Shown here: positions 2,388 through 60,280 of the stretch, one piece after another | Layout of the letters: each line of letters starts with the position of its first letter | How positions within the stretch are numbered: the stretch's first letter is position 1 | Source of the DNA: Mobula hypostoma | Lineage: Eukaryota | Length of the DNA: 64,000 nucleotides | Direction: 5' to 3' | Assembly (NCBI RefSeq): GCF_963921235.1 | Contig: NC_086097.1 | Span: 131,318,001 to 131,382,000 of the forward strand | Program-made: the position numbers and the translations under genes | Notes under the pieces: generated by a model | Database searches by the model: none | What the model was told of the DNA's origin: nothing | Seen by the model: the letters and a program-made list of their open reading frames with translations, nothing else

Positions 2388-3369
2388 TAATTTCATACTT
2401 CTAATATATATAAATATATCTGGTCAGTGACTGAACCTTCACGACTGTCTGGGTAGAGAATTCCAAAAATCATGATCCTCTGATTAATTCCTTTTGTTGT
2501 CCCATCCTGCATGGCTGACCCCTCATTTTAAAATGTGACCCCTGGTTCCTGACACCAAATTCAAGAAAATCATTATCTCTGCATCAACCCAGCCAACATA
2601 ATCAAGGACATCGTCATATTCTGAAGATCCTTTTAACAACAGTGGGAAATATTCCCCGCATTCTGATGTATTTTAATCAAAAATACTGAAGGCATTGCTA
2701 GCTAATGATCTGCGATGGTGAAACTCTTGGGGAAGAGACAGGGATGGGGAAAAAATCTGTGGAACTTGAAGTAACAGTTAATTTAATATTTTACACTCAG
2801 TGCTTTTCTAACCTGGGGTCCCTGATTTTAATTGCTTCTCACCATTAGTGTCTGCCCCAGGACCGAAACCATAGATCTCCCTCCAGATAGCCTTAGACAT
2901 CTGTATTGTTCATCTTAAAGAAACACTTTCAACCTTATCTAGTTATCTGTTCTAGTATCATCAACTGTGTAGTTGGCATGCGGGAGGAAAGCATTTTGAC
3001 TTCATGTGTATAGATGATCTGATTAGTCACGTTCAGATTCAGATTCAGATTAGCTTACTGTCATATACTCTAGGGTACAATGAAATTCCTCACTCATGTG
3101 AAGCTCACAAAATAAACAGTATACATGGAGTAATAAATATAACACTAAATACCACGATGAGTGCAATGCAATGGAATGGTGCAAAGTACAGTAATGTAAA
3201 CGGACATGCTAAAGTGATAGGAATGGAAGAGATAGAATTAAGGATTTGAGAATATGAATGTGATCAGGAAGGGGTGATTGGTTCAGACTTCTGATAGTGT
3301 GGGAAAGATGTTCTGAGTCTTCATAAAGAGTCTTATGGAGCTGTGTGGATGCTTTCCTTTATTAGCTGA

Positions 3370-4440: not shown

Positions 4441-5466
4441 ACAAATTAGAACACATGTTAAGTGGGACAAAGAACACTTTGACAACCTTTGAAATTCCAG
4501 CTCCTCTGGCAGATCCTTTTCCTCTTTAATCTTCATACTCTGATAGAGACATTGATCCATAGCATTATTCTACCTTTTAGTGGAAACAGGATGTCCATGC
4601 CAATAAACTTGCCTACCTGAGCTAGTCCTATTTGTCTGTGTTTGGCCCATATCTCTCTATCTTGAGCAGGCTCCTATCTTCACACTCCTCTTCCACCATC
4701 TTTTTCTATCTTTTTTTCTCTTTTCTTTATTGTCTGCTTAAACCTATTATTCACCTGTTGTCTTCCAATTCTCCCAAATATCACATCCCTAACCTGACAC
4801 TACCAACTTACCATCTTACACACCTCCTCAATCCACCAATAACCTCATAATCCTTTCTCAACTCTACCCTGCTCCTCCTTGTGAAGACCATCTCACCCAC
4901 TTCCCACACAATTCCCAACTCCAACTTTAACCTCTGCCAGCAGGCCTCATCTTCTTTCCAGCAGAGTCATGAAACCTACATTGGTTGTAGCACTGATCAA
5001 AATTTGTCAGTGCTGAATAATTGCTTGGGCCTTGGGATTCTATGTATGGAGACTTGCTCTACCTGTGCACTCACAAGTATATATATATATAACATTTTAT
5101 ACATATAATAATGCAGAAGAAGACAATAGTATCCATGTCAACCATTAGTCTAATTCCTTCCTTTCCTTAACTCCCAGCAACTTATTTCTCTTACATATGG
5201 CCATCAGCTTCCTTTCTTATTCTTTATGCCATTAACTTCACAGAGCTAATTTACAGAGATTTAAATTCACTTATCAGCAAGTCTTTGGGATGTGGGGGAA
5301 AACCTGAGGAAAATCCACTTGCATAGACAGCAGCTGAGGTCAGGATTGAACGGAGGTCTCTCCAGTTTAATACTGGAGCCTAAAGACGAATCTGTTACAG
5401 AATGGTGAGAGTATTCTAATATCTATCAAATAAAATGTGAAATGAAGGCCCTGCCTATTCTTTGAG

Positions 5467-5851
5467 AATCAGAATCAGGTTTATTATCACCGGCATTTGA
5501 CATGAAATTTGTTAACTTAGCAGCAACAGTTCAATGTAATACATAATTTAGCAGAGAGAGAGAAAAATAATAAATAAAATAAAACATAATAATAAATAAA
5601 CAAGTAAATCAATTACGTATCTTGAATACATCATTAAAAAATGAAGAAAAACAGAAATACTCTATATTAAAAAAAAGCGAGGTAGTGTCTAAAGCTTCAA
5701 AGTCCATTCAGGAATCGGACGGCAGAGGGGAAGAAGCTGTTCCTGAATCGCCGAGTGTGTGCCTTCAGGCTTCTCCTACCAGACGGTAACAGTGAGAAGA
5801 GGGCATGCCCTGGGTGCTGGAGGTCTTTAATAATGGACGCTGCCTTTCTGA
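5467..5851 (-). mobile_element. Rex1/Babar-type LINE 3' fragment
   Basis: Encodes LRKAASIIKDLQHPGHALFSLLPSGRR..RFRNSFFPSAVRFLN; (CTGATT)n tail; same family as 44459-45408. Confidence 0.8.
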
Positions 5852-5864
5852 GGCTTTCTGTGGA

Positions 5865-44458: not shown

Positions 44459-45408
44459 CTGTGTGGCTAGGCATAGCTCAAATACCATCTATAAATTTGC
44501 TGACGATACAACCATTGTTGGTAGAATTCAGGTGGTGACGAAAGGGCGTACAGGAGTGAGATATGCCAACTAGTGGAGTGGTGTTGCAGCAACAACCTGG
44601 CACTCAACGTCAGTAAGACAAAAGAGCTGATTGTGGACTTCAGGAAGGGTAAGACAAAGGAACACATGCCAATTCTCATAGAGGGATCAGAAGTGGAGAG
44701 AGTGAGCAGCTTCAAGTTCCTGGGTGTCAAGATATCAGAGGATCTAACCTGGTCCCAACATATCAATGTAGTTAAAAACAAGGCAATTCAGCAGCTATAC
44801 TTTATTAGGAGTTTGAAGAGATTTAGCATGTAAACAAATACACTCAAAAACTTCTATAGTTGTACCGTGGAGAGCATTCTGACAGGTTGCATCACTGTCT
44901 GGTACGGAGAGGCTTCTGTACAGGACCGAAAGAAGCTGCAGAAGGTTGTAAATCTAGTCAGCTCCATCTTGGGTGCTAGTCTACAAAGTACCCAGAACAT
45001 CTTTAGGCAGCGGTGTCTCAGAAAGGCAGCATCCGTTACTAAGGACCTCCAGCACCCACGGCATGCCCTTTTCTCACCGTTACCCTCAGGTAGGAGATAC
45101 AGAAGCCTGAAGGCACACACTCAGCGATTCAGGAACAACTTCTTCCCCTCTGCCATCCGATTCCTAAATGGACATTGAAGCTTTGGACACTACCTCACAT
45201 TTTTTTAATATACAGTATTTCTGTTTTTGCACTTTTTAAAATCTATTCAATATATGTAATTGATTTACTTGTTTATTTATTATTATTTTTATTTTATTTA
45301 TTATTACTATTTTTTCTCTGCCAGATTATGTATTGCATTGAACTGCTGCTGCTAAGTTAACAAATTTCATGTCACATGCCGGTGATAATAAACCTGATTC
45401 TGATTCTG
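44459..45408 (+). mobile_element. 5'-truncated Rex1/Babar-type LINE
   Basis: KFADDT, NNLALNVSKTKELIVDFRK, ESILTGCITVWYG, LPSGRRYRSL..FFPSAIRFLN; (CTGATT)n tail; 7-bp TSD acataga (44452-58 and 45409-15). Confidence 0.92.
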
Positions 45409-45880: not shown

Positions 45881-48640
45881 GTGTCTTGACCTAGATTTAT
45901 CTCTTAGCCAACCCTGATCCAGTTGCTCGTTGTGGAAGGTTGTTGTGCACATATTTGATACTATATTTCCTACATAAGTGTGTGGACGCATTTCAAAAAC
46001 GTACGGGCAGTCCCTGGGTTACAAGGTTCTTCCATTCCTCAGAGGTGTCCAGAAGCTAATTTCTCTGTAAGTCAGGAACATCGATTTCTACCTGTATCTT
46101 ATTGCTCTACATACTTGGGTGTATTTCTTTCATTTCATTGATTACCCACCCTAACACCATCTATAATCAAACCAATTGAATTTATAATGCATCCCATTAT
46201 CAATTAATTCCACAAAACATTATTGTTATAATCATCATTATTATTATTATTACCATAAGAAGAATGCTTTAAATACATGGGAGAATTTGCATAAAGTTGG
46301 ACTTCTTTAACTGAGGCCATTTGTAATTGTGAACCCCTGCTGTTCATTGCTGACAATGCAATTGGGCATATCCTGACAGTCACTACATACAATGTAAGTT
46401 TTTCTCTTTGTTAATGATGTTATTCTCCCCATGGATGCTGCCTGACCTGCTGAGCCTTACCAGCACTTTTTTGGTCTTAATTATGCCTTAGGCTCAACCA
46501 CCTGCTGATGTCCACCACATGAAAAACTGATGCTTGGATGAGTGTCTCAACAGTAATGGGCATTACCAAACACGGAGCCAAGCTTTCATGAGAGAAGGAG
46601 AGAACAGGGAAGGATGTTGAAAGAAAAATTGCATTAAGTTAAATCATGAAACACAGAAAAGAATAGCACAGAAGAATGTCTTCCGGCCTAAGACATTGTT
46701 GCAAACTAACTAAACCAATGATGCCTAATTAAACTAATCCCTTCTACCTGTACATGATCCACATCCATATTAGGGATGTGATGTTAAGGCTCTATAAGGC
46801 TACACTTGGAGTATTGTGTGCAGTTTTGAGCTTCATATTTTAGAAAAGATATACTGACATTGGAGAGGGTTCAGAGAAGATTCATGAGAATGATTCCAGG
46901 AATGAAAGGGTTACTGTATGAGGAATGTCTGGTAGCTCTTGGGCTGTATTCCCTGGAACTCAGGAGAATGAGGGGGGATCTCACAGAAACATTAAACATA
47001 GAAACATAGAAACATAGAAAATAGGTGCAGGAGTAGGCCATTCAGCCCTTCGAGCCTGCACCGCCATTTATTATGATCATGGCTGATCATCCAACTCAGA
47101 ACCCTGACCCAGCCTTCCCTCCATACCCCCTCATCCCTGTAGCCACAAGGGCCATATCTAACTCCCTCTTAAATATAGCCAATGAACTGGCCTCAACTGT
47201 TTCCTGTGGCAGAGAATTCCACAGATTCACCACTCTCTGTGTGAAGAAGTTTTTCCTAATCTCGGTCCTAAAAGGCTTCCCCTTTATCCTCAAACTGTGA
47301 CCCCTCGTTCTGGACTTCCCCAACATCGGGAACAATCTTCCTGCATCTAACCTGTCCAATCCCTTTAGGATTTTATACGTTACAATCAGATCCCCCCTCA
47401 ATCTTCTAAATTCCAACGAGTACAAGCCCAGTTCATCCAGTCTTTCTTCATATGAAAGTCCTGCCATCCCAGGAATCAATCTGGTGAACCTTCTTTGTAC
47501 TCCCTCTATGGCAAGGATTGTCTTTCCTCAGATTAGGGGACCAAAACTGCACACAATACTCCAGGTGTGGTCTCACCAAGGCCTTGTACAACTGCAGTAG
47601 TAGGTCCCTGCTCCTGTACTCGAATCCTCTTGCTATAAATGCCAGCATACCATTCGCCTTTTTCACCGCCTGCTGTAACTGCATGCCCACTTTCAATGAC
47701 TGGTGTATAATGACACCCAGGTCTCGTTGCACCTCCCCTTTTCCTAATCGGCCACCATTCAGATAATAATCTGTTTTCCTATTTTTGCCACCAAAGTGGA
47801 TAACTTCACATTTATCCACATTAAATTGCATCTGCCATGAATTTGCCCACTCACCCAACCTATCCAAGTCACCCTTCATCCTCTTAGCATCCTCCTCACT
47901 GCTACCACAGCCACCCAGCTTCGTGTCATCCGCAAACTTGGAGATGCTGCATTTAATTCCCTCATCCAAGTCATTAATATATATTGTAAACAACTGGGGT
48001 CCCAGCACTGAGCCTTGCGGTACCCCACTAGTCACCGCCTGCCATTCTGAAAAGGTCCCGTTTATTCCCACTCTTTGCTTCCTGTCTGCTAACCAATTCT
48101 CTATCCACATTTATACCTTACCCCCAATACTGTGTGCTTTAAGTTTGCACACTAATCTCCTGTGTGGGACCTTGTCAAAAGCCTTTTGAAAACCCAAATA
48201 TACCACATCCACTGGTTCTCCCTTATCCACTCTACTAGTTACATCCTCAAAAAATTCTATGAGATTCGTCAGACATGATTTTCCTTTCACAAATCCATGC
48301 TGACTTTGTCCGACGATTTCACCGCTTTCCAAATGTGCTGTTATCACATCTTTGATAACTAACTCCAGCAGTTTCCCCACCATCGACGTTAGGCTAACCG
48401 GTCTATAATTCCCCGGTTTCTCTCTCCCTCCTTTTTTAAAAAGTGGGGTTACATTAGCGACCCTCCAATCCTCAGGAACTAGTCCAGAATCTAACGAGTT
48501 TTGAAAAATTATCACTAATGCATCCACTATTTCTTGGGCTACTTCCTTAAGCACTCTGGGATGCAGACCATCTGGCCCTGGGGATTTATCTGCCTTCAAT
48601 CCCTTCAATTTACCTAACACCACTTCCCTACTAACATGTA

Positions 48641-49870
48641 GTAGAGTGGATAGGGGAGAACCAGTGGATGTGGTATATTTGGATTTTCAAAAGGCTTTTG
48701 ACAAGGTCCCACACAGGAGATTAGTGTGCAAACTTAAAGCACACGGTATTGGGGGTAAGGTATTGGTGTGGGTGGAGAATTGGTTAGCAGACAGGAAGCA
48801 AAGAGTGGGAATAAACGGGACCTTTTCAGAATGGCAGGCGGTGATTAGTGGGGTACCGCAACGCTCAGTGCTGTGACCCCAGTTGTTTACAATACATATT
48901 AATGACTTGGATGAGGGAATTAAATGCAGCATCTCCAAGTTTGCGGATGACACGAAGCTGGGTGGCAGTGTTAGCTGTGAGGAGGATGCTAAGAGGATGC
49001 AGGGTGACTTGGATAGGTTGGGTGAGTGGGCAAATTCATGGCAGATGCAATTTAATGTGGATAAATGTGAAGTTATCCACTTTGGTGGCAAAAATAGGAA
49101 AACAGATTATTACCTGAATGGTGGCCGATTGGGAAAAGGGGAGGTGCAACGAGACCTGGGTGTCATTATACACCAGTCATTGAAAGTGGGCATGCAGGTA
49201 CAGCAGGCGGTGAAAAAGGCGAATGGTATGCTGGCATTTATAGCGAGAGGATTCGAGTACAGGAACAGGGAGGTACTACTGCAGTTGTACAAGGCCTTGG
49301 TGAGACCACACCTGGAGTATTGTGTGCAGTTTTGGTCCCCTAATCTGAGGAAAGACATCCTTGCCATAGAGGGAGTACAAAGAAGGTTCACCAGATTGAT
49401 TCCTGGGATGGCAGGACTTTCATATGAAGAAAGACTGGATGAACTGGGCTTGTACTCGTTGGAATTTAGAAGATTGAGGGGGGATCTGATTGAAACGTAT
49501 AAGATCCTAAAGAGATTGGACAGGCTAGATGCAGGAAGATTGTTCCCGATGTTGGGGAAGTCCAAAACGAGGGGCCACAGTTCGAGGATAGAGGGGAAGC
49601 CTTTTAGGACCGAGATTAGGAAAAACTTCTTCACACAGAGAGTGGTGAATCTGTGGAATTCTCTGCCACAGGAAACAGTTGAGGAAAGTTCATTGGCTAT
49701 ATTTAAGAGGGAGTTAGATATGGCCCTTGTGGCTACAGGGGTCAGGGGGTATGGAGGGAAGGCTGGGGCGGGGTTCTGAGTTGGATGATCAGCCATGATC
49801 ATAATAAATGGCGGTGCAGGCTCGAAGGGCCGAATGGCCTACTCCTGCACCTATTTTCTATGTTTCTATG
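48641..49870 (+). mobile_element. 5'-truncated CR1 of the same family, nested antisense in the minus-strand copy
   Basis: RT YLDFQKAFD..FADD through to the 3' tail; host sequence resumes exactly (ctaacatgta|tttcgctcag); atgta duplicated at 48636-40 and 49868-72. Confidence 0.95.
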
Positions 49871-51666
49871 TATTTCGCTCAGTTCCTCCATCTCACTGGA
49901 CCCTCTGTCCCCTAATATTTCTGGAAAATTATTTATGTCCTCCTTAGTGAAGACAGAACCAAAGTAAATATTCAATTGGTCTGCCATGTCCTTGCTCCCC
50001 ATAATCAATTCACCTGTTTCTGTCTGTAGGGGACCTACATTTGTCTTTACCAGTCTTTTCCTTTTTACATATCTATAAAAGCTTTTACAGTCAGTTTTTA
50101 TGTTCCCTGCAAGTTTTCTCTCATAATCTTTTTCCCCTTCCTAATTAAGCCCTTTGTCCTCCTCTGCTGTACTCTGAATTTCTCCCAGTCCTCAGGTGAG
50201 CCACTTTCTCTGGCTAATTTGTATGCTTCTTCTTTGGATTTGATACTATCCCTAATTTCTCTTGTCAGCCACGGGTGCACTACCTTCCTTGATTTATTCT
50301 TTTGCCAAACTGGGATGAACAATTGTTGTTGTTCATCCATGCAACCTTTAAATGCTTGCCATTGCATATCCACCGTCAATCCTTTAAGTGTCATTTGCCA
50401 GTCTATCTTAGCTAATTCACGTCTCATACCTTCAAAGTTACCCCTCTAAGTTCAGAACCTTTGTTTCTGAATTAACTATGTCACTCTCCATCTTAATGAA
50501 GAATTCCACCATATTATGGTCACTCTTACCCAAGGGGCCTCTCACGACAAGATTGCTAATTAACCCTTCCTCATTGCTCAAAACCCAGTCCAGAATAGCC
50601 TGCTCTCTAGTTGGTTCCTCGACATGTTGGTTCAAAAAACCATCCCGCATACATTCCAAGAAATCCTCTTCCTCAGCACCTTTACCAATTTGGTTCACCC
50701 AGTCTACATGTGATTGAAGTCACCCATTATAACTGCTGTTCCTTTATTGCACACATTTCTAATTTCCTGTTTAATACCATCTCTGACCTCACTACTACTG
50801 TTAGGTGGCCTGTACACAACTCCCACCAGCGTCTTCTGCCCCTTGGTGTTACACAGCTCTACCCATATCGATTCCACATCTTCCCGGCTTATGCCCTTCC
50901 TTTCTATTGCGTTAATCTCTTCTTTAACCAGCAACACCACCCCACCTCCCCTTCCTTCATGTCTATCGCTCCTGAATATTGAATATCCCTGAACGTTGAG
51001 CTCCCATCCCTGGTCACCCTGGAGCCATGTCTCTGTGATCCCAACTATATCATAATCATTAATAACAATCTGCACTTTCAATTCATCCCACCATTCCACC
51101 CAAACCTCCCTAGTATTTATTTTCTCCTTAACCTCTGGTTCTATGAGTTCTGACTTATGCCTGGGCAAGTCCCAGCAAGATAGCCCTCTACAGGCAAATA
51201 GGTGCTTCCAGGGGTGTGAACGTGGATCGTGAATTTTGTCTTATGTGCTGGGACCAGGAGAGAACCTCTGAGATGATAGCGCCCAGGAAGTTGTGGGTTG
51301 CTGGAACAGTGAGGCAGCAGCACTGCTTGTTATGCCACCATTCCACCCAAACCTCACTAGTATTTATTTTCTCCTTAACCATTAATTCATCCACCTTATT
51401 ACGAATGCTCCTTGCATTGACACACAAAGCCTTCAGGCGCTCTTTTACAACTCTCTTAGCCCTTATACAATTATGTTGAAAAGTGGCCCTTTTTAATGCT
51501 TGCCCTGGATTTGTCGGCCTGCCACTTTTACTTTTCACCTTCGTACTTTTTGCTTCTACCCTCACTTTACACCCCTCTGTCTCTCTGCACTCGTTCCCAT
51601 CCCCCTGTTGTGAACTAACCTCCTCTCGCCTAGCCTCTTTAATTTGATTCCCACCCCCAAACCATT

Positions 51667-52602
51667 CTAGTTTAAAGTCACCTCAGTAGCCCTCGCTAAT
51701 CTCCCTGCCAGGATATTGGTCCCCCTAGGATTCAAGTGTAACCCGTCCTTTTTGTACAGGTCACGCCTGCGCCAAAAGAGGTCCCAATGATCCAAAAACT
51801 TGAATACCTGCCCCCTGCTCCAATCCCTCAGCCACGCATTTATCCTCCAGCTCATCGCATTCCTACTCTCACTGTCGCGTGGCATAGGCAGTAATCCCGA
51901 GATTACTACCTTTGCGGTCCTTTTTCTCAACTCCCTTCCTAGCTCCCTATATTCTCCTTTCAGGACCTCATCCCTTTTCCTACCTATGTCATTGGTACCT
52001 ATATGTACCACGACCTCTGGCTCCTCACCCTCCCACTTCAGGATATCTTGGACACGATCAGAAATATCCCGGACCCTGGCACCAGGGAGGCAAACTACCA
52101 TCCGGGTCTCTGGACTGCGTCCACAGAATTGCCTATCTGACCCCCTTAGTATTGAGTCCCCTATCACAACTGCCCTCCTCTTCCTTGCCCTACCCTTCTG
52201 AGCTACAGGGCCAGACTCTGTGCTGGAGGCACGGCCACTGTCGCTTCCCCCAGGTAAGCTGTCCCCCCCAACAGTACTCAAACAGGAGTACCTATTGTTA
52301 AGGGGCACAACCACCGGGGTACTCTCTATTACCTGACTCTTCCCCTTCCCCCTCCTAACCGTGACCCACTTGTCTGCCTCCCGTGGCCCCGGTGTGACCA
52401 CCTGCCTGCAACTCCTCTCTATCAACTCCTCACTCTCCCTGACCAGACGAAGGTCATCGAGCTGCAGCTCCAGTTCCGTAACGCGGTCCCTTAGGAGCTG
52501 CATCTCGATGCACTTGGCGCAGATGTAGACGTCTGGGAGGCTTGGAGACTCCAGGGCCTCCCACATCCGACACCGAGAACAACAAACTGCCCTCACACTC
52601 AT
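51667..52602 (-). CDS. CR1 ORF1p: CxxC..CxxC zinc finger, coiled coil, SGNH/GDSL esterase domain (311 aa from first ATG)
   Basis: Uninterrupted ORF; CSRC..CAKC, LRDRVTELELQLDDL heptads, VIGDS, CLPGA, HIGTND, DGLHLN. Confidence 0.9.
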   Translation of the reverse strand: MSVRAVCCSRCRMWEALESPSLPDVYICAKCIEMQLLRDRVTELELQLDDLRLVRESEELIERSCRQVVTPGPREADKWVTVRRGKGKSQVIESTPVVVPLNNRYSCLSTVGGDSLPGGSDSGRASSTESGPVAQKGRARKRRAVVIGDSILRGSDRQFCGRSPETRMVVCLPGARVRDISDRVQDILKWEGEEPEVVVHIGTNDIGRKRDEVLKGEYRELGRELRKRTAKVVISGLLPMPRDSESRNAMSWRINAWLRDWSRGQVFKFLDHWDLFWRRRDLYKKDGLHLNPRGTNILAGRLARATEVTLN

Positions 52603-54699
52603 ACAGCCCCTCTCCTCAAATAACAACAGAAAATGAATGCCAAACCTTCCTCGCCATTAAGAATGTTAAAAGGCCTGAACAGAATAGATATGGCAAAGTT
52701 ATTTCCCATGGTAGGGGATTCTAGGACAAGAGGGCATAACTTTGGGATTGAAGGACATCCTTTTAGAACTGACATGTACTTTAGTCAGTCAGATGGTAAA
52801 TCTGTGGAATTTGTTGCCACAAGTGGCTGTAGAGGCCAATTCATTGGGTGTATTTAAGGCAGAGACAGATAGGTTCTTGATTAGACAGGGCATCAAAGGG
52901 TATAGGGTGAAAGCAGGGGAGTGGGGATGACTGGAAGAATTGGATTAGTCCATGATTGAATGGCGGAGGCTGTTTGTGTGTAATTAGAGATTTGCTCTTG
53001 CTGATGCTGGCTTGGCAGACCATACGGTATGGCGTGCTTCACTTATCCTGCCAATGGATTTCAAGGATTTTGCAGAGAAACTGTAGGTGGTATTTTTCCA
53101 TTGCCTTGAGATACCTGTTGTAGGAAATCATGTCTCTGAAGCAAGAAGAATGGCAGGATTCACTGCTGCCTTGTCGACCGTGAGTTTGGTACAGTACTGG
53201 AGTTGAAATCCAGGTTTTTAAGTAGTCTTTTTCCTTGGACAACAATTCCAGCACGCTAGACGCGGTGGTGAAATTCATTCCTGATGTCTAACTTCATGAC
53301 GATAAAGGATATGGTTTGTGTTTTCCAAGATTGTAGGAAGATGATGGTATGTAGCAAGAGCATGTTGTTAGATGACATTTCCTTTGTGGATATTAATTGT
53401 TTTACCATTCTTTTGTCTTTGGTGAATGAGCCAATGCGATTTGGACTCTAAGCATCTGCATGACAAACAGGAGAAAATCTGCAGATGCCGAAAATTTAAA
53501 GTAACACACACAAAATGCTGGAGGAACTTGGCTGAACTTGCTTTGCCTATGTATTACAACTCATTGACTGACATTGATGTGATGTCATATCTGGAGTGGA
53601 GTTGGGCAGTTTCCCATTTGTCCTGTAGATTCTGTCCGGGGGAAACTCGTTGGATGTGAATTGCAATATTGCAGCAAAATAAACTGTAAAGTGTTGAAGC
53701 CACACCACAGTCTTTACTTGATGCCAGTCTTCACTGGATTGGGCATATAGTAGGCCTGAGGGTTAGAAACGTGACTGGTGTGTCATCATGTGGTTGAGGA
53801 AGAATGGAGATGAATTTCTAAGTGCAGCCACACTTGGGCCCTGACAGGGGTAGTTGTCTTTCAAAGAAGAAGTAAAATGAGCAAAATGTTTGGAAGGATC
53901 AAGGTAAATAATATCATGACAGGATTAGGGAGTGAAGAACCGCAGTTCACTCGTGCGAGAACACAGAAGAGGGCAATGCATTTAAAAGTTGAAAAAGAAT
54001 TTGACTCCCCAGGAAGAGAAAGGATTTTTATTTTCAAATTTCCGGTAACCTAGGATTATTCTATTTTTAAAAATTTCTTCCTTGGCAAGTCAAGATCACG
54101 GTCTGTGGCATCTTTAAAGAACGAGTTTAATCTGCAGTGCTGAGGTATGCTAAGCCTCTTTGGTTTTCTTTGTTGGAGTCCCTACTAATACCGCTCTGTA
54201 AAGCAAAGATGATCGCGAAGCGCTGGGCAAGAAGAGAGAACAATTAGGTGCGGTGATATTAGGCAGTGTTGTGAAAAGTAGGCTGATGAAATAATTCCTT
54301 GATCAGTCCTGTGGAAGAATTGCTCTGGGAAAACTGTGTCTGTGAGTTGCGGTATCTTCCTTTGTTGTAATGCAAGCTTATACAGTGGACCTTGCTTAGC
54401 ATGGCTATTATTCAGTTACTGTAAAATCTGCTACAAGTCCGCCTTCTGGGAAGATTTGGAAAGGGCTGCGGGCAATTTGTACATAGGTATGACTAACGCA
54501 CCGACATGGTTATCTGATAAAATCAGGCCTGGTAGATGGAGATTTTGTTTTAAATACTTCTGTGTTTGTACTATTTTACAAAACTGTGCTTTCAACAAGG
54601 AAACTTTTCAGCAAAGCATTCCTATTTACATGGAACAAATAGGGTTTCAAACTGCAAATGGATACTCTTTCCATTTAGTTTGAATTGGCAACAACATCC

Positions 54700-55085
54700 C
54701 TTCTACAATCTCAATCAGCACAGGCGCTCCACAACTCTGTGTGTTTATCCCCTGTTCTACTCACTTTACACTTATGACTGTGTGGCTAAGCACAGCCCCA
54801 ACGCCATACTTAAGTTTACTGATGACACCACTGTCGTTGGCTGAATCAAATGATGATGATGAATCAGCATACAGGAGGGAGGTTGAAAATCTGTCTGAGT
54901 GGTGCCACAACAACAACCTCTCACTCAATGTCAGTAAGATCAAGGAGATGAGTATTGACTTCAGGAGGAGGGAGCCAGAGGTCTATGAGCCAGTCCTTGT
55001 TGGGGGATCAGAGGGAGAGAAGGTCAGCAATTCTAACTTCCTGGGCGCTATCATCTCAGAGGTCCTCTCCTGGTCCCAGCACGTA
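54700..55085 (+). mobile_element. Rex1/Babar-type LINE RT fragment
   Basis: LFYSLYTYDCVA..KFTDDTTVVG and WCHNNNLSLNVSK.KEM.IDFRR. Confidence 0.85.
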
Positions 55086-55239
55086 AGACAAAATTCACGA
55101 TCCACGTTCACACACCTGGAAGCACCTATTTGCCTGTAGAGGGCTATCTTGCTGGGACTTGCCCAGGCATAAGTCAGAACTCATAGAACCAGAGGTTAAG
55201 GAGAAAATAAATACTAGGGAGGTTTGGGTGGAATGGTGG

Positions 55240-57991
55240 GATGAATTGAAAGTGCAGATTGTTATTAATGATTATGATATAGTTGGGATCACAGAGACAT
55301 GGCTCCAGGGTGACCAGGGATGGGAGCTCAACGTTCAGGGATATTCAATATTCAGGAGGGATAGACATGAAGGAAGGGGAGGTGGGGTGGCGTTGCTGGT
55401 TAAAGAAGAGATTAACGCAATAGAAAGGAAGGACATAAGCCGGGAAGATGTGGAATCGATATGGGTAGAGCTGTGTAACACCAAGGGGCAGAAGACGCTG
55501 GTGGGAGTTGTGTACAGGCCATCTAACAGTAGTAGTGAGGTCGGAGATGGTATTAAACAGGAAATTAGAAATGTGTGCAATAAAGGAACAGCAGTTATAA
55601 TGGGTGACTTCAATCTACATGTAGACTGGGTGAACCAAATTGGTAAAGGTGCTGAGGAAGAGGATTTCTTGGAATGTATGCGGGATGGTTTTTTGAACCA
55701 ACATGTCGAGGAACCAACTAGAGAGCAGGCTATTCTGGACTGGGTTTTGAGCAATGAGGAAGGGTTAATTAGCAATCTTGTCGTGAGAGGCCCCTTGGGT
55801 AAGAGTGACCATAATATGGTGGAATTCTTCATTAAGATGGAGAGTGACATAGTTAATTCAGAAACAAAGGTTCTGAACTTAAAGAGGAGTAACTTTGAAG
55901 GTATGAGACGTGAATTAGCTAAGATAGACTGGCAAATGACACTTAAAGGATTGACGGTGGATATGCAATGGCAAGCATTTAAAGGTTGCATGGATGAACA
56001 ACAACAATTGTTCATCCCAGTTTGGCAAAAGAATAAATCAAGGAAGGTAGTGCACCCGTGGCTGACAAGAGAAATTAGGGATAGTATCAAATCCAAAGAA
56101 GAAGCATACAAATTAGCCAGAGAAAGTGGCTCACCTGAGGACTGGGAGAAATTCAGAGTTCAGCAGAGGAGGACAAAGGGCTTAATTAGGAAGGGGAAAA
56201 AAGATTATGAGAGAAAACTGGCAGGGAACATAAAAACTGACTGTAAAAGCTTTTATAGATATGTAAAAAGGAAAAGACTGGTAAAGACAAATGTAGGTCC
56301 CCTACAGACAGAAACAGGTGAATTGATTATGGGGAGCAAGGACATGGCAGACCAATTGAATAATTACTTTGGTTCTGTCTTCACTAAGGAGGACATAAAT
56401 AACCTTCCAGAAATAGTAGGGGACAGAGGGTCCAGTGAGATGGAGGAACTGAGCGAAATACATGTTAGTAGGGAAGTGGTGTTAGGTAAGTTGAAGGGAT
56501 TGAAGGCAGATAAATCCCCAGGGCCAGATGGTCTGCATCCTAGAGTGCTTAAAGAAGTAGCCCAAGAAATAGTGGATGCATTAGTGATAATTTTTCAAAA
56601 CTCGTTAGATTCTGGACTAGTTCCTGAGGATTGGAGGGTGGCTAATGTAATCCCACTTTTTAAAAAAGGAGGGAGAGAGAAACCGGGGAATTATAGACCG
56701 GTTAGCCTAACGTCGGTGGTGGGGAAACTGCTGGAGTCAGTTATCAAGGATGTGATAACAGCACATTTGGAAAGCGGTGAAATGATCGGACAAAGTCAGC
56801 ATGGATTTGTGAAAGGAAAATCATGTCTGACGAATCTCATAGAATTTTTTGAGGATGTAACTAGTAGAGTGGATAGGGGAGAACCAGTGGATGTGGTATA
56901 TTTGGGTTTTCAAAAGGCTTTTGACAAGGTCCCACACAGGAGATTAGTGTGCAAACTTAAAGCACACGGTATTGGGGGTAAGGTATTGGTGTGGGTGGAG
57001 AATTGGTTAGCAGACAGGAAGCAAAGAGTGGGAATAAACGGGACCTTTTCAGAATGGCAGGCGGTGACTAGCAAGGCTCAGTGCTGGGACCCCAGTTGTT
57101 TACAATATATATTAATGACTTGGATGAGGGAATTAAATGCAGCATCTCCAAGTTTGCGGATGACACGAAGCTGGGTGGCTGTGGTAGCAGTGAGGAGGAT
57201 GCTAAGAGGATGAAGGGTGACTTGGATAGGTTGGGTGAGTGGGCAAATTCATGGCAGATGCAATTTAATGTGGATAAATGTGAAGTTATCCACTTTGGGG
57301 GCAAAAATAGGAAAACAGATTATTATCTGAATGGTGGCCGATTAGGAAAAGGGGAGGTGCAACGAGACCTGGGTGTCATTATACACCAGTCATTGAAAGT
57401 GGGCATGCAGTTACAGCAGGCGGTGAAAAAGGCGAATGGTATGCTGGCATTTATAGCAAGAGGATTCGAGTACAGGAGCAGGGACCTACTACTGCAGTTG
57501 TACAAGGCCTTGGTGAGACCACACCTGGAGTATTGTGTGCAGTTTTGGTCCCCTAATCTGAGGAAAGACATCCTTGCCATAGAGGGAGTACAAAGAAGGT
57601 TCACCAGATTGATTCCTGGGATGGCGGGACTTTCATATGAAGAAAGACTGGATGAATTGGGCTTGTACTCATGGAATTTAGAAGATTGAGGGGGGATCTG
57701 ATTGAAACGTATAAGATCCTAAAGGGATTGGACAGGCTAGATGCAGGAAGATTGTCCCCGATGTTGGGGAAGTCCAGAACGAGGGGTCACAGTTTGAGGA
57801 TAGAGGGGAAGCCTTTTAGGACCGAGATTAGGAAAAACTTCTTCGCACAGAGAGTTGTGAATCTGTGGAATTCTCTGCCACAGGAAACTGTTGAGGCCAG
57901 TTCATTGGCTATATTTAAGAGGGAGTTAGATATGGCCCTTGTGGCTACGGGGGTCAGGGGGTATGGAGGGAAGGCTGGGGCGGGGTTCTGA
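55240..57991 (+). pseudogene. CR1 ORF2 (APE-RT) pseudogene
   Basis: Long open frame to about 57070 lacks the N-terminal NARS motif, has YLGFQKAFD instead of YLDFQKAFD, a 10-bp deletion at about 57071 and another frameshift at about 57670. Confidence 0.9.
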
Positions 57992-58089
57992 GTTGGATGA
58001 TCAGCCATGAGCATAATAAATGGCGGTGCAGGCTCGAAGGGCCGAATGCCCTACTCCTGCACCTATTTTCTATGTTTCTATGTTTCTAT
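55240..58089 (+). mobile_element. Young 5'-truncated CR1 LINE, sister of 46996-52654
   Basis: APE plus RT plus 3' UTR and tail; begins at ggatgaatt; lies inside a SINE whose head is at about 55226-55239 and whose body follows at 58090. Confidence 0.95.
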
Positions 58090-58330
58090 TCCATCCCTGG
58101 AAGCTGCCTGATGGACCTTGCACATTCCTCCTGTAATGATGTGGGTGTCCTGAAGATGCCCTGGTCTTCAGCCATGTCCTAAAAGTGTATGAGTTGCTAA
58201 GGTTAACTAGCTATCCAAAATACTTCAAGCATGAAGTGGGATGTTGATAGGAGTAAAGGGAAAATACTTTAAAGGAAAAGGAGTGGGGGATTGAGACTGA
58301 TCTGTGAGCTGGCCTAGACACAGTACGCTA
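58090..58330 (+). mobile_element. Body of a degraded HE1/V-SINE-like element split by the CR1
   Basis: tccatccc..ttgcacattcctcctgtaatgatgtgggtgtcc..aggttaactagcta matches the other SINE copies in the window. Confidence 0.6.
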
Positions 58331-58519: not shown

Positions 58520-60280
58520 TGGAAAACAGTGCTGGAGTGGTAGGAATGGGGGACAAGGTAATGGTGGTTGAACTAAATAAGTATTTTGCATCAGTCTTCG
58601 CTGTAGAAGACACAAGCAGAATGGTGGCAGTTCCAGGTATCAGATGTCATGAAGTGTGTGAAGTTACCTTTACTAGGGAGAAGGTTCTTGGGAAACTGAA
58701 AGGTCTGAAGGTAGATATGTCACCTGGACCAGATAGTGTACACCCTAGGGTTCTGAAAGAGCTGGCTGAAGAGATTGTGGAGGCATTAGCAATGATCTTT
58801 CAAGAACCGTTAGATTCTGGAATGGTTCCAGAAGACTGGAAAATTTGCAAATGTCTCTCCACTCTTCAAGAAGGAAGAGAGGCAGAAGAAGGGAAACTAT
58901 AGGTCAGTTAGTCTGACCTCAGTGGCTGGGAAGATGTTGGAGATGATTATTAGGAATGAGGTGTCAGGGAACTTGGAGTCACATGTTAAAATGGACCGTA
59001 GTCAGCATGGTTTCCTCAAGGGAAAATCTTGCCTGAAAAATCTGTTGGAATTCTTTGTAGAACTAACAAGCCAGATAGACAAAGGAGAATCGGTTGATGT
59101 TGTGTATTTGGATTTTCAGAAGGCATTCAACAAGGTGCCACAGATAAGGCTGCTTAACAAGCTATGAGCACATGGTATTACAGGAAAGATTCTAGCATGG
59201 ATAAAGCAGTGGCTGACTGAAAGGACACAAAGAGTGGGAATAAAGGGAGACCTTTTCTGATTGGCTGTCGATGACTAGTGGTGGTCCACAGGGGTTTGTG
59301 TTGGGACCTATTCTTTTTACATTTTATGTTAATGATTTGGATGATGGAATTGACAGCTTTGTTACGAAGTTTGTAGATGATACGAAGATAGGTGGAGGGG
59401 CATGTAGTTTTGCGTAAGTAGAGAGGCTACAGAGGGACGGATTAGGAGAAGGGGCAAAGAAGTGGCTGATGGAATACAGTGTCGGGAAGTGTATGGTCTT
59501 GCACTTTGGTAGGGGTTGTCTATTTTCTAAATGGAGAAAAAATACAAAAAAATGAGGCGCAAAGGGACACAGGACTGCTTGTACAGGATTCCATAAAGGT
59601 TAAGTTGCAGGTTGAGTCTGTGGTGAGCAAGGCAAATGCAATGTTCATATTCATTTCAAGAGGACTAGAATATAAAAGCAAGGATGTAATGTTGAGACTT
59701 TATAAAGCACTACTGAGGCCTCACTTGGAGTACTGTGAGCAGTTTTGGGCCCCTTATCTTAGAAAGGACGTCCTGAAACTGGAGAGGGTTCAAAGGAGGT
59801 TCATGAAAATGATTCCAGGTTTGAACGGCTTGTCATATGAAGAGAGTTTGACGGCTCTGGGCCTGTATTCTCTGGAATTCAGAAGAATGAGGAGTGACTT
59901 CATTGGAACCTATTGAATGGTGAAAGGCCTTGATAGAGTGGATGTGGAGGGGATGTTTCCTGTTGTGGGAGAGTCGAAGACCAGAGGACACAGCTTCAGA
60001 ATAGAGGGACATCCTTTTAGAATGGAGATGAGGAGCAATTCCTTTAGCCAGAGATTGGTGAATCTGGGGAAATTTTTGCCACGGGCAGCTGTGGAGGCCA
60101 AGTCTTTATGTATATTTAAGGCAGAGGTTGATAGATTCTTGATTGGTCAGGACATGAAGGGATACAGAGAGAAGGCAGGAGGCTGGGGCTGAGAGGAAAA
60201 TTGGATCAGCCGTGGTGAAATGGCAGAGCAGACTCGGTGGGGCAAATGGCCCAACTCTGTTCCTACTTCTTTTGGTCTAT
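58520..60280 (+). mobile_element. Older CR1 LINE (different subfamily), 5'-truncated, multiple stops
   Basis: SPGPDSVHPRVLKE, SQHGFLKGKSC, YLDFQKAF, LYKALLRPHLEYC; CR1 3' UTR. Confidence 0.92.

Follow-up and report, generated by a model that had tools for sequence, protein, structure and literature searches.

Somatic L1 insertions provide a described case in which DNA of non-LINE origin becomes part of a new LINE copy. The templates are typically <250 bp long and lie within 15 bp of the insertion site (Zumalave et al., 10.1101/2024.08.27.596794). L1 ORF2p is capable of template jumping and of non-templated addition (PMC10830420). The Mobula hypostoma locus described here is similar in that a non-LINE template, comprising 205 and 88 bp, is found within a LINE, and the end of one segment (C) is located 2–3 bp from an insertion site. 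Pairing of cDNA with nearby DNA, the route preferred below, is also that proposed for L1 (10.1101/2024.08.27.596794). In the L1 examples described, the copy stays in the inserting element, whereas here it lies in a copy of a different subfamily, 4 kb off, that has its own target duplication. The present case further differs from these examples in having two permuted templates and loss of C from the donor, and in concerning a germline CR1 rather than a somatic L1.

Exchange between neighbouring repeats is a second precedent. Alu elements within ~10 kb of one another undergo conversion, which yields hybrid elements (PMC8230782, citing Aleshin and Zhi 2010). The CR1 copies studied here have likewise swapped subfamily-diagnostic alleles over a distance of <10 kb to form hybrids. 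Unlike the Alu case as described, exchange is two-way, continues past the end of homology for 292 bp of unique flank and ends in a non-homologous closing junction. Later intrachromosomal conversion has been invoked to explain an internal segment of an L1 (PMC1920257). Break repair supplies further parallels: long-tract gene conversion, MMBIR and multiple template switching are described, and the locus shares with them a homologous end, an end-joined end with filler and short duplication, and switches at 1-nt overlaps (PMC4888836). Break repair alone does not predict that the inner breakpoints should each fall at an end of a retrotransposition event, as they do here. One-sided invasion was reportedly described by Belmaaza and Chartrand in 1994 and by Tremblay et al. 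in 2000.

How the 5' end of a LINE is joined to its target is still poorly understood (PMC6895275, PMC2666801). During L1 integration by TPRT the upstream (reciprocal) target end is remodelled, and adjacent deletions and duplications result (Mendez-Dorantes et al., 10.1101/2024.12.14.628481). Remodelling of the upstream end is common to that system and to this locus; the rearrangements reported for L1 are deletions, inversions and inverted duplications, whereas here a direct, permuted copy is found in a resident element. A fish LINE shows target truncations and extra nucleotides at the 5' end (PMC2666801). Transductions at 5' or 3' ends and chimeras of LINEs with other RNAs also move host sequence with a LINE; these originate at the RNA level and lie at element ends (PMC13174262). 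Here the sequence moved is internal, local and not propagated. Chimeric L1 elements are said to arise when cDNA recombines with an endogenous L1, the intervening DNA being deleted or duplicated (reportedly Gilbert et al. in 2002 and 2005). In the reading preferred below, nascent cDNA similarly pairs with a resident copy near the target; at this locus, unlike those cases, the interval has stayed intact, and sequence was gained by the resident copy. L1 templated insertion and neighbour-repeat conversion are each already known, and their combination appears to be new: capture together with neighbour conversion was not found in the literature searched, which consisted mostly of sources other than subscription journals. 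The core shared by the preferred reading and one of its rivals, that the insertion-site flank of a younger copy was written into a resident older copy, is likely to be correct.

CR1 copies and the insert

Self-comparison of the window (the whole stretch of DNA analysed, 64,000 nucleotides) shows one LINE family to be represented by three young copies inside an 11-kb interval. The name CR1 is based on an earlier reading, protein domains and a microsatellite tail. Vertebrate CR1 elements encode an esterase-type ORF1 and an APE-RT ORF2 (PMC13343379). In domain searches ORF1 matches Lipase_GDSL_2 (E 4.5e-15, above the cut-off), and ORF2 of the right copy matches Exo_endo_phos (E 9e-12) and RVT_1 (E 1e-13). 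The left copy and the element nested in it have the following parts.

46990–46995, plus strand: first copy of the left CR1 target-site duplication, CATTAA, within an older CR1 fragment
46998–52655, minus strand: left CR1, near full-length, with esterase ORF1 and broken ORF2; 'left-type' (beta); recipient of the insert
48640–49871, plus strand: third CR1, 5'-truncated, nested in the left copy in opposite orientation, with a 4-bp duplication
49872–51088, minus strand: tract of the left CR1 that has been homogenised; alleles are right-type by the insert and left-type farther on
51384–52655, minus strand: x, the 5' part of the left CR1 (ORF1 and start of ORF2); left-type at 11 of 12 diagnostic sites, private at the twelfth
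52655–52660, plus strand: second copy of the target-site duplication, its first base common to the element

The left CR1 is without most of the 5' UTR present in other copies. Its target duplication measures 5–6 bp, and with one copy counted the host fragment is collinear with window positions 59800–60030. Elsewhere in the family, three loci (L098 at 2865–3297, L076 and L084) contain tandem subunits of ~170 bp in the 5' UTR, which resemble the repeating CR1 5' subunits mentioned in PMC13343379. The right copy alone carries a ~10-bp deletion at 57070, by which its ORF2 is broken. The window also contains an inverted pair of sequences (5465–5852 and 45017–45407; 395 bp, 88.6%) that resemble each other more than either resembles a third copy at 38.6–39.2 kb.

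ORF2 of the dead left CR1 is interrupted by a 295-bp insert (51089–51383) whose origin lies ~4 kb away. In element sense the order is 3-nt filler, B, C and A-B, between two copies of a 9-bp CR1 repeat.

51384–51392, minus strand: x-side copy of the 9-bp CR1 repeat
51381–51383, minus strand: 3-nt filler joining x to B, AAT in element sense; a contig of run X5 matches B up to 51380
51335–51380, minus strand: B1, the first copy of B, 46 bp, distinguished from the two others by a single difference at 51356
51293–51334, minus strand: C, 42 bp of SINE head, gone from the donor site and contiguous with B in relatives
51089–51292, minus strand: A-B2, inverted copy of the right CR1 5' flank 55035–55238, with 3 differences
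51080–51088, minus strand: y-side copy of the 9-bp repeat, equal to the first 9 bp of the right CR1 (55239–55247)

The first-pass annotation had placed the insert at these coordinates, between repeats at 51080–88 and 51384–92, and had read it as B-C-A-B; this description holds, with the filler added. It had also taken A-B to be the DNA directly upstream of the right CR1, and the insert indeed carries 55035–55239 inverted, with 3 differences in 205 bp. In the self-comparison, 49868–51292 and 55035–56463 are 98.7% identical in inverted orientation, so that similarity extends 205 bp beyond the truncation point of the right copy, into A-B. The microhomologies proposed at two junctions are shorter than first thought. 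At the C-to-A junction the true overlap is 1 nt, the common CAGCAA being shifted by one base. GGTGG is present on both sides of the B-to-CR1 junction, though the true overlap there is also 1 nt (G). The motif ATTAATG, 16 nt into y, is a possible template for the filler; a 7-mer this near is not beyond chance, and it was not counted.

The insert consists of local host DNA and does not normally belong to this CR1. C has no second match in the 64-kb window, even with up to 14 mismatches allowed, in keeping with the earlier remark that it occurs nowhere else. A genome search with the insert (3.48 Gb, very common words being skipped) gives 26 matches. Those longer than 65 bp fall at two places only, both at this locus, and the remaining 24 are 30–65 bp of old repeats. 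The insert is absent from all 116 mapped family loci, and the dispersed copies elsewhere in the genome that a nested mobile element would be expected to have were not found. A common CR1 variant or an independent mobile element was rejected on these grounds. By a crude proxy, target duplications are 0–8 bp in 52 of 52 family loci, mostly 4–6 bp; the repeat flanking the insert is 9 bp. The insert is internal and permuted, neither at an element end nor collinear with its source flank, which bears out the annotators' distinction between internal capture and 5' or 3' transduction. It breaks ORF2, has no sign of function or of daughters, and is probably neutral.

The donor site and its empty allele

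The source of the insert lies around the right CR1.

55035–55239, plus strand: donor A-B, native here; A prolongs an old LINE fragment upstream, and B enters a SINE head
55240–58089, plus strand: right CR1, 5'-truncated, 'right-type' (alpha) subfamily; missing in relatives, with 45 bp of target lost at the 5' junction
58086–58089, plus strand: CTAT, 4-nt microhomology between CR1 tail and target
58090–58260, plus strand: D, SINE continuation and flank beyond the right CR1

Sequencing runs of relatives were found using unique DNA between the two CR1 copies; one organism differs from the window at 35 of 2069 letters (1.7%). B and C are contiguous in a single contig in all four runs from other species (X5, X16, X17 and X18), with 2–5 mismatches over 86–89 letters. 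The end of A adjoins B-C in each of the four, and D does so in X5, X17 and X18. In X16 the D-side consensus blends two contigs, and the same 623-letter contig aligns to D separately. A-B and D are linked without a CR1 by one contig each of X5 and X16, 45 letters separating 55239 from 58086. C is followed by three letters (ATC in X5 and X18, GTC in X17) and then by CTAT. The empty site is therefore A-B-C-(3 nt)-D, and C has been lost from the donor; the order A-B-C-D proposed from the window is confirmed, with three extra letters after C. The 5' junction of the right CR1 lacks 45 bp of target, namely C plus 3 nt, and the end of C sits 2–3 nt from the 3' junction. Because CTAT also ends the CR1 tail, unambiguous D begins at 58090, and the presence of CTAT in both tail and empty site suggests that the right CR1 was primed with 4-nt microhomology. 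Among the contigs listed for a further run, X9, none runs across the donor site.

C had also been taken for the part of a SINE head that joins B to D. Direct alignment to locus L009, in which B-C and D are in register, supports the view that B-C-D derive from one old SINE; for D the support is weak (score 62.5 against a shuffled maximum of 60). An earlier automated SINE test found no pair for B-C-D, Rfam gave no match over B-C, and a search with D gave one weak match besides the donor site. The difference of B1 at 51356 was considered as an ancestral allele and left unused: the comparison with relatives shows none there, but it omits differences near the ends of pieces. Two small features of the neighbourhood emerged from the same runs. 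Contigs of X5 and X16 cease to match at 52969 (boundary 52968|52969), the X5 contig continuing for 285 letters; the stop coincides with an older CR1 fragment that has no 3' end, and is probably a deletion in the lineage of this genome. At 58235, X5 and X16 have 15 extra letters, a small deletion in the Mobula hypostoma assembly.

An assembly chimera or polishing artefact between neighbouring repeats is highly improbable. Contigs of the same-species run X1, possibly the assembly's own sample, do extend only 29 letters over B|CR1 and 24 over CR1|D, below the 31-letter rule for bridging. Depth in X1 is nevertheless 20.6 over A-B and 10.1 on unique flanks, a doubling that supports two real copies. 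The copies differ by 1.3–3%, C is unique in the assembly yet matches the empty site of relatives, and shared rare variants fall in discrete tracts with no drift to the family majority.

Subfamily alleles and timing

Family loci numbered 196, of which 116 came from a similarity search and 80 were the first of 389 motif matches (L095 and L145 are the same locus). Groups were set by 3' sites outside the shared tracts only, giving 40 right-type and 26 left-type loci, and the two subfamilies separate clearly. The 3' ends are left-type in the left copy and right-type in the right copy, and x, too, is left-type. In the regions between, the copies share alleles. Directly downstream of the insert the left copy is right-type at three of three diagnostic sites (both copies are right-type at 55317, 55482 and 55626), and farther on both are left-type at 55774, 56238, 56304 and 56419. 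Each keeps its own type at 56553–56995 and again at 57657–57982. A second shared tract lies between these.

57180–57573, plus strand: second shared tract, equivalent to ~47500–47910 of the left copy

In this tract the two copies agree in a right-type allele at 57189 and a left-type allele at 57573, and they share five rare variants. Site 57485 was rejected as a right-type marker, being found in both subfamilies, so that the direction of this tract rests on 57189 and 57573 only.

The left and right copies have eight rare variants in common, against a maximum of three in 1378 unrelated pairs; with all 196 loci as background the number is nine. No single locus of 116 checked has more than one of the eight. 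None of the 97 loci that cover the relevant sites has a 5' mosaic like that of the left and right copies. The nested CR1 has a mix of alleles from both subfamilies and none of those of the eight shared rare variants that it covers. Tracts of shared diagnostic and rare alleles bordered by tracts of own alleles are as in non-allelic gene conversion; unlike such conversion, the transfer was not confined to homologous sequence, since 292 bp of unique flank were moved. Judged from these alleles, the left and right CR1 are independent insertions of different subfamilies that exchanged sequence both ways, a point missed in the first-pass annotation. Homogenisation of the 1.2 kb adjoining the insert went both ways. 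The end of the main tract falls between 56419 and 56553, the interval that holds the site of the nested element (equivalent to 56459–63). Changes at 56968–56997 of the left copy were considered as a G-to-A hypermutation cluster; three of the six are left-type alleles found in 9–19% of copies and three are rare, which makes no case for editing.

Left-type sequence gives way to right-type sequence at the insert, which also coincides with the truncation point of the right copy. This position bears on the mechanism first proposed, in which reverse transcriptase jumped from RNA to target DNA, to target DNA again and back to RNA. The two jumps onto target DNA, by a cDNA and then once more, remain the simplest source of the permuted order. 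A single reverse transcriptase using a single RNA to build the whole left element, whether directly or as the daughter of an element at C|D that was once full-length, would account for that order, the filler and the 9-bp slip, and later conversions could have overwritten the subfamily markers. The subfamily switch at the insert nevertheless disfavours one pass on one RNA: x and the 3' end are left-type, but the sequence beside the insert is right-type. The left copy's own target duplication also lies at a different site, no other daughter with the insert is found, and a lone daughter 4 kb from its source is improbable; this reading is very unlikely. A short return to RNA is a separate matter. 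The 41 bp of x adjoining the insert contain no diagnostic site, and at 51425, 41 bp from the insert, the left copy has G (right-type A in 11 of 12, left-type G in 8 of 8). A return for less than ~40 nt is compatible with the data and one of up to ~240 nt is disfavoured. The longer return is kept as possible because the left copy's alleles at 51604 and 51425 occur together in 2 of 27 right-type-like copies; its 51626 allele occurs in 0 of 27.

Divergence gives an approximate chronology. In the motif-picked sample the median divergence from the own-group majority is 1.95% for left-type copies (n=14), a group that may be heterogeneous, and 0.99% for right-type copies (n=33). From subfamily age, the left CR1 is likely to be the older insertion and the right CR1 the younger. 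Rare-variant loads in the unshared parts are 6 in 1080 bp (right), 9 in 1080 bp (left) and 12 in 1220 bp (nested), and the left load is not clearly above the right. Over A-B and the right-type tract the left and right copies differ at 9 of 666 bp (1.35%), and the left-type tract is similar. As 1.35% is about twice the rare-variant load of the right copy (0.56%), the capture would be about as old as the right insertion, and transfers in both directions appear to be of about that age. Within the homogenised tract, changes are left-only in 11 cases and right-only in three (P about 0.06), an excess that could reflect error-prone copying, patchy repair or chance and is not predicted by the preferred model.

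These dates weigh on the idea that the two elements were inserted synchronously, a left-type RNA at the left site and a right-type RNA at C|D, the left cDNA switching onto the right intermediate and running along B-A and C-B before re-pairing with its own RNA 9 nt back. The return to RNA of the first-pass annotation is retained in this scheme, with two elements involved. The 3-nt filler and 9-nt slip would suit non-templated addition and re-priming by reverse transcriptase (PMC10830420), synchronous L1 insertions with exchange of cDNA are described (10.1101/2024.08.27.596794), and the rare-variant loads of the left and right copies are not significantly different. Left-type copies are, however, about twice as diverged as right-type ones. 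Shared rare variants at 56000 and 56091, in the left-type tract, look like mutations of the left copy that precede the exchange, and the tract ends at the nested element, which is necessarily later than the left insertion. Synchronous insertion is accordingly held to be unlikely.

Proposed transfer of the insertion-site flank into a neighbouring copy

The reading we prefer, tentatively and at somewhat less than even confidence, is that an integration intermediate of the right element wrote host DNA from its landing site into the older, inverted, resident CR1. The proposed course of events is as follows. (i) TPRT would initiate at C|D via the 4-nt microhomology. (ii) Synthesis of cDNA would halt at GGATGAATT and jump to the end of B on the upstream target strand, with copying of B and A (205 nt). 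A second jump, onto C at this strand's free end, would lead to copying of C and B (88 nt). The enzyme could be reverse transcriptase or a host end-joining polymerase; the two leave similar junctions. (iii) The cDNA would pair with the 97–98% identical inverted copy 4 kb off, over 1.2 kb from the truncation point to the nested element. Mismatch repair would run in one direction beside the insert and in the opposite direction farther on. (iv) The left copy would be cut 9 nt within the paired region, the x end and the cDNA tail would be joined with a 3-nt filler, and the tail would be copied in. (v) At the right site, A-B of the cDNA would anneal to native A-B, flaps would be trimmed and C would be deleted. 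This strand-level order is our inference from a single locus.

One event of this kind would account for four coincidences: the position of the insert at the truncation point, of C at the nick, the loss of C and the end of the tract. It would likewise account for the adjoining two-way tract of similar age. Rough uniform models put chance at ~0.5% for an insert at the truncation point, ~3% for C ending at the nick and ~5% for a tract ending at the nested element. A stop in pairing at that element would fit the end of the main tract. That the capture was tied to the insertion event is supported by the end of C lying 2–3 nt from the 3' junction of the right CR1. Inverted CR1 neighbours also undergo conversion well after insertion, so the two-way tract need not belong to the insertion event, and the second tract (57180–57573) may postdate it.

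The same core can be reached in three steps. The right CR1 would integrate as A-B-C-A-B-CR1-D, a break in the left copy would be repaired by one-sided conversion that ran 292 bp into this flank before end-joining, and the A-B repeats would later collapse, with loss of C. A single contiguous template then suffices for the insert, every sequence fact fits, and each step is of a known type: templated insertion, long-tract conversion with template switching (PMC4888836) and conversion over up to ~10 kb (PMC8230782). Three rare events would have to fall on one haplotype, all near the time of insertion, and the equally old left-to-right tract is unexplained by this scheme alone. A-B and the right-type tract have no shared variant that is rare in the first 116 loci, and one, a CpG-type site (55474), in the larger set. 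The intermediate junction type is found in 0 of 156 other 5' junctions. We consider the three-step course possible and rather unlikely.

Alternatively, the right insertion may simply have deleted 45 bp of target, and a later MMBIR-like repair of a break in the left copy, at a time when the right insertion was still heterozygous, may have used two templates, first the filled allele (CR1, B and A) and then the empty homologue (C and B). Target-site truncations are known for CR1-group LINEs (PMC2666801), as are multiple template switches in repair (PMC4888836), and the single difference between B1 and the other B copies would suit this reading. The second switch would have to strike within 2–3 nt of the insertion nick at an overlap of only 1 nt, and the points at which contigs of relatives split suggest that the other B allele is common to them, which would make the B1 difference private. 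Later two-template repair is thus distinctly improbable. A rolling-circle copy of an A-B-C circle was rejected by reasoning, as the identical B|CR1 junction in both copies would be unexplained.

The case is a single, probably neutral event, and its weight is limited: the locus is one, and its ingredients are each already described. Its value is that subfamily markers reveal the copy of origin of each stretch and relatives supply the empty site, so that a second location records both ends of one integration. That one event, the integration of a LINE cDNA with a target-copied tail, both edited a germ-line neighbour and swapped subfamily alleles in two directions is conceivable, falling short of an even chance. 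If true, new insertions could rewrite nearby older copies at the time of integration; this would create mosaic LINEs, and subfamily dating would be misled where young inverted copies lie a few kilobases apart. The locus would then preserve the 5'-joining intermediate in fossil form, the neighbour keeping the bases removed by 'target-site deletion', and what look like target-site deletions would in some cases be templated duplications that had collapsed. The pattern can be searched for: an insert inside one copy that corresponds to sequence flanking the 5' end of a neighbouring copy.

Within this family, duplication of local flank was sought at other 5' junctions, the count being limited to loci with a junction and ≥250 bp of flank, which excluded 34 and 6 loci. 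None was found at 82 and 74 loci, the sole match being a palindrome at L130; zero in 156 indicates that step (ii) is rare in the family. A truncation hot spot at GGATGAATT was rejected: 3 of 196 loci start ≤15 nt off without a long match to x, where ~2 are expected, and one of the three, L056, does continue into x. Two interruptions of other copies were tried as look-alikes of the insert and rejected, neither being local flank. One is the 268-bp palindromic SINE-like insert in the CR1 at L130 (2891–3158), with arms 96% alike over 221 bp and a 14-bp repeat. The other is a 1.1-kb insert of a different element in the CR1 5' UTR at L086 (270–1403), with an 11-bp repeat. The CR1 at L116 (2206–2209) has a 5' inversion resembling the product of twin priming. 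Two further loci, L108 and L109, lie 152 kb apart on contig C21 and are identical across the 500 bp compared, a possible segmental duplication.
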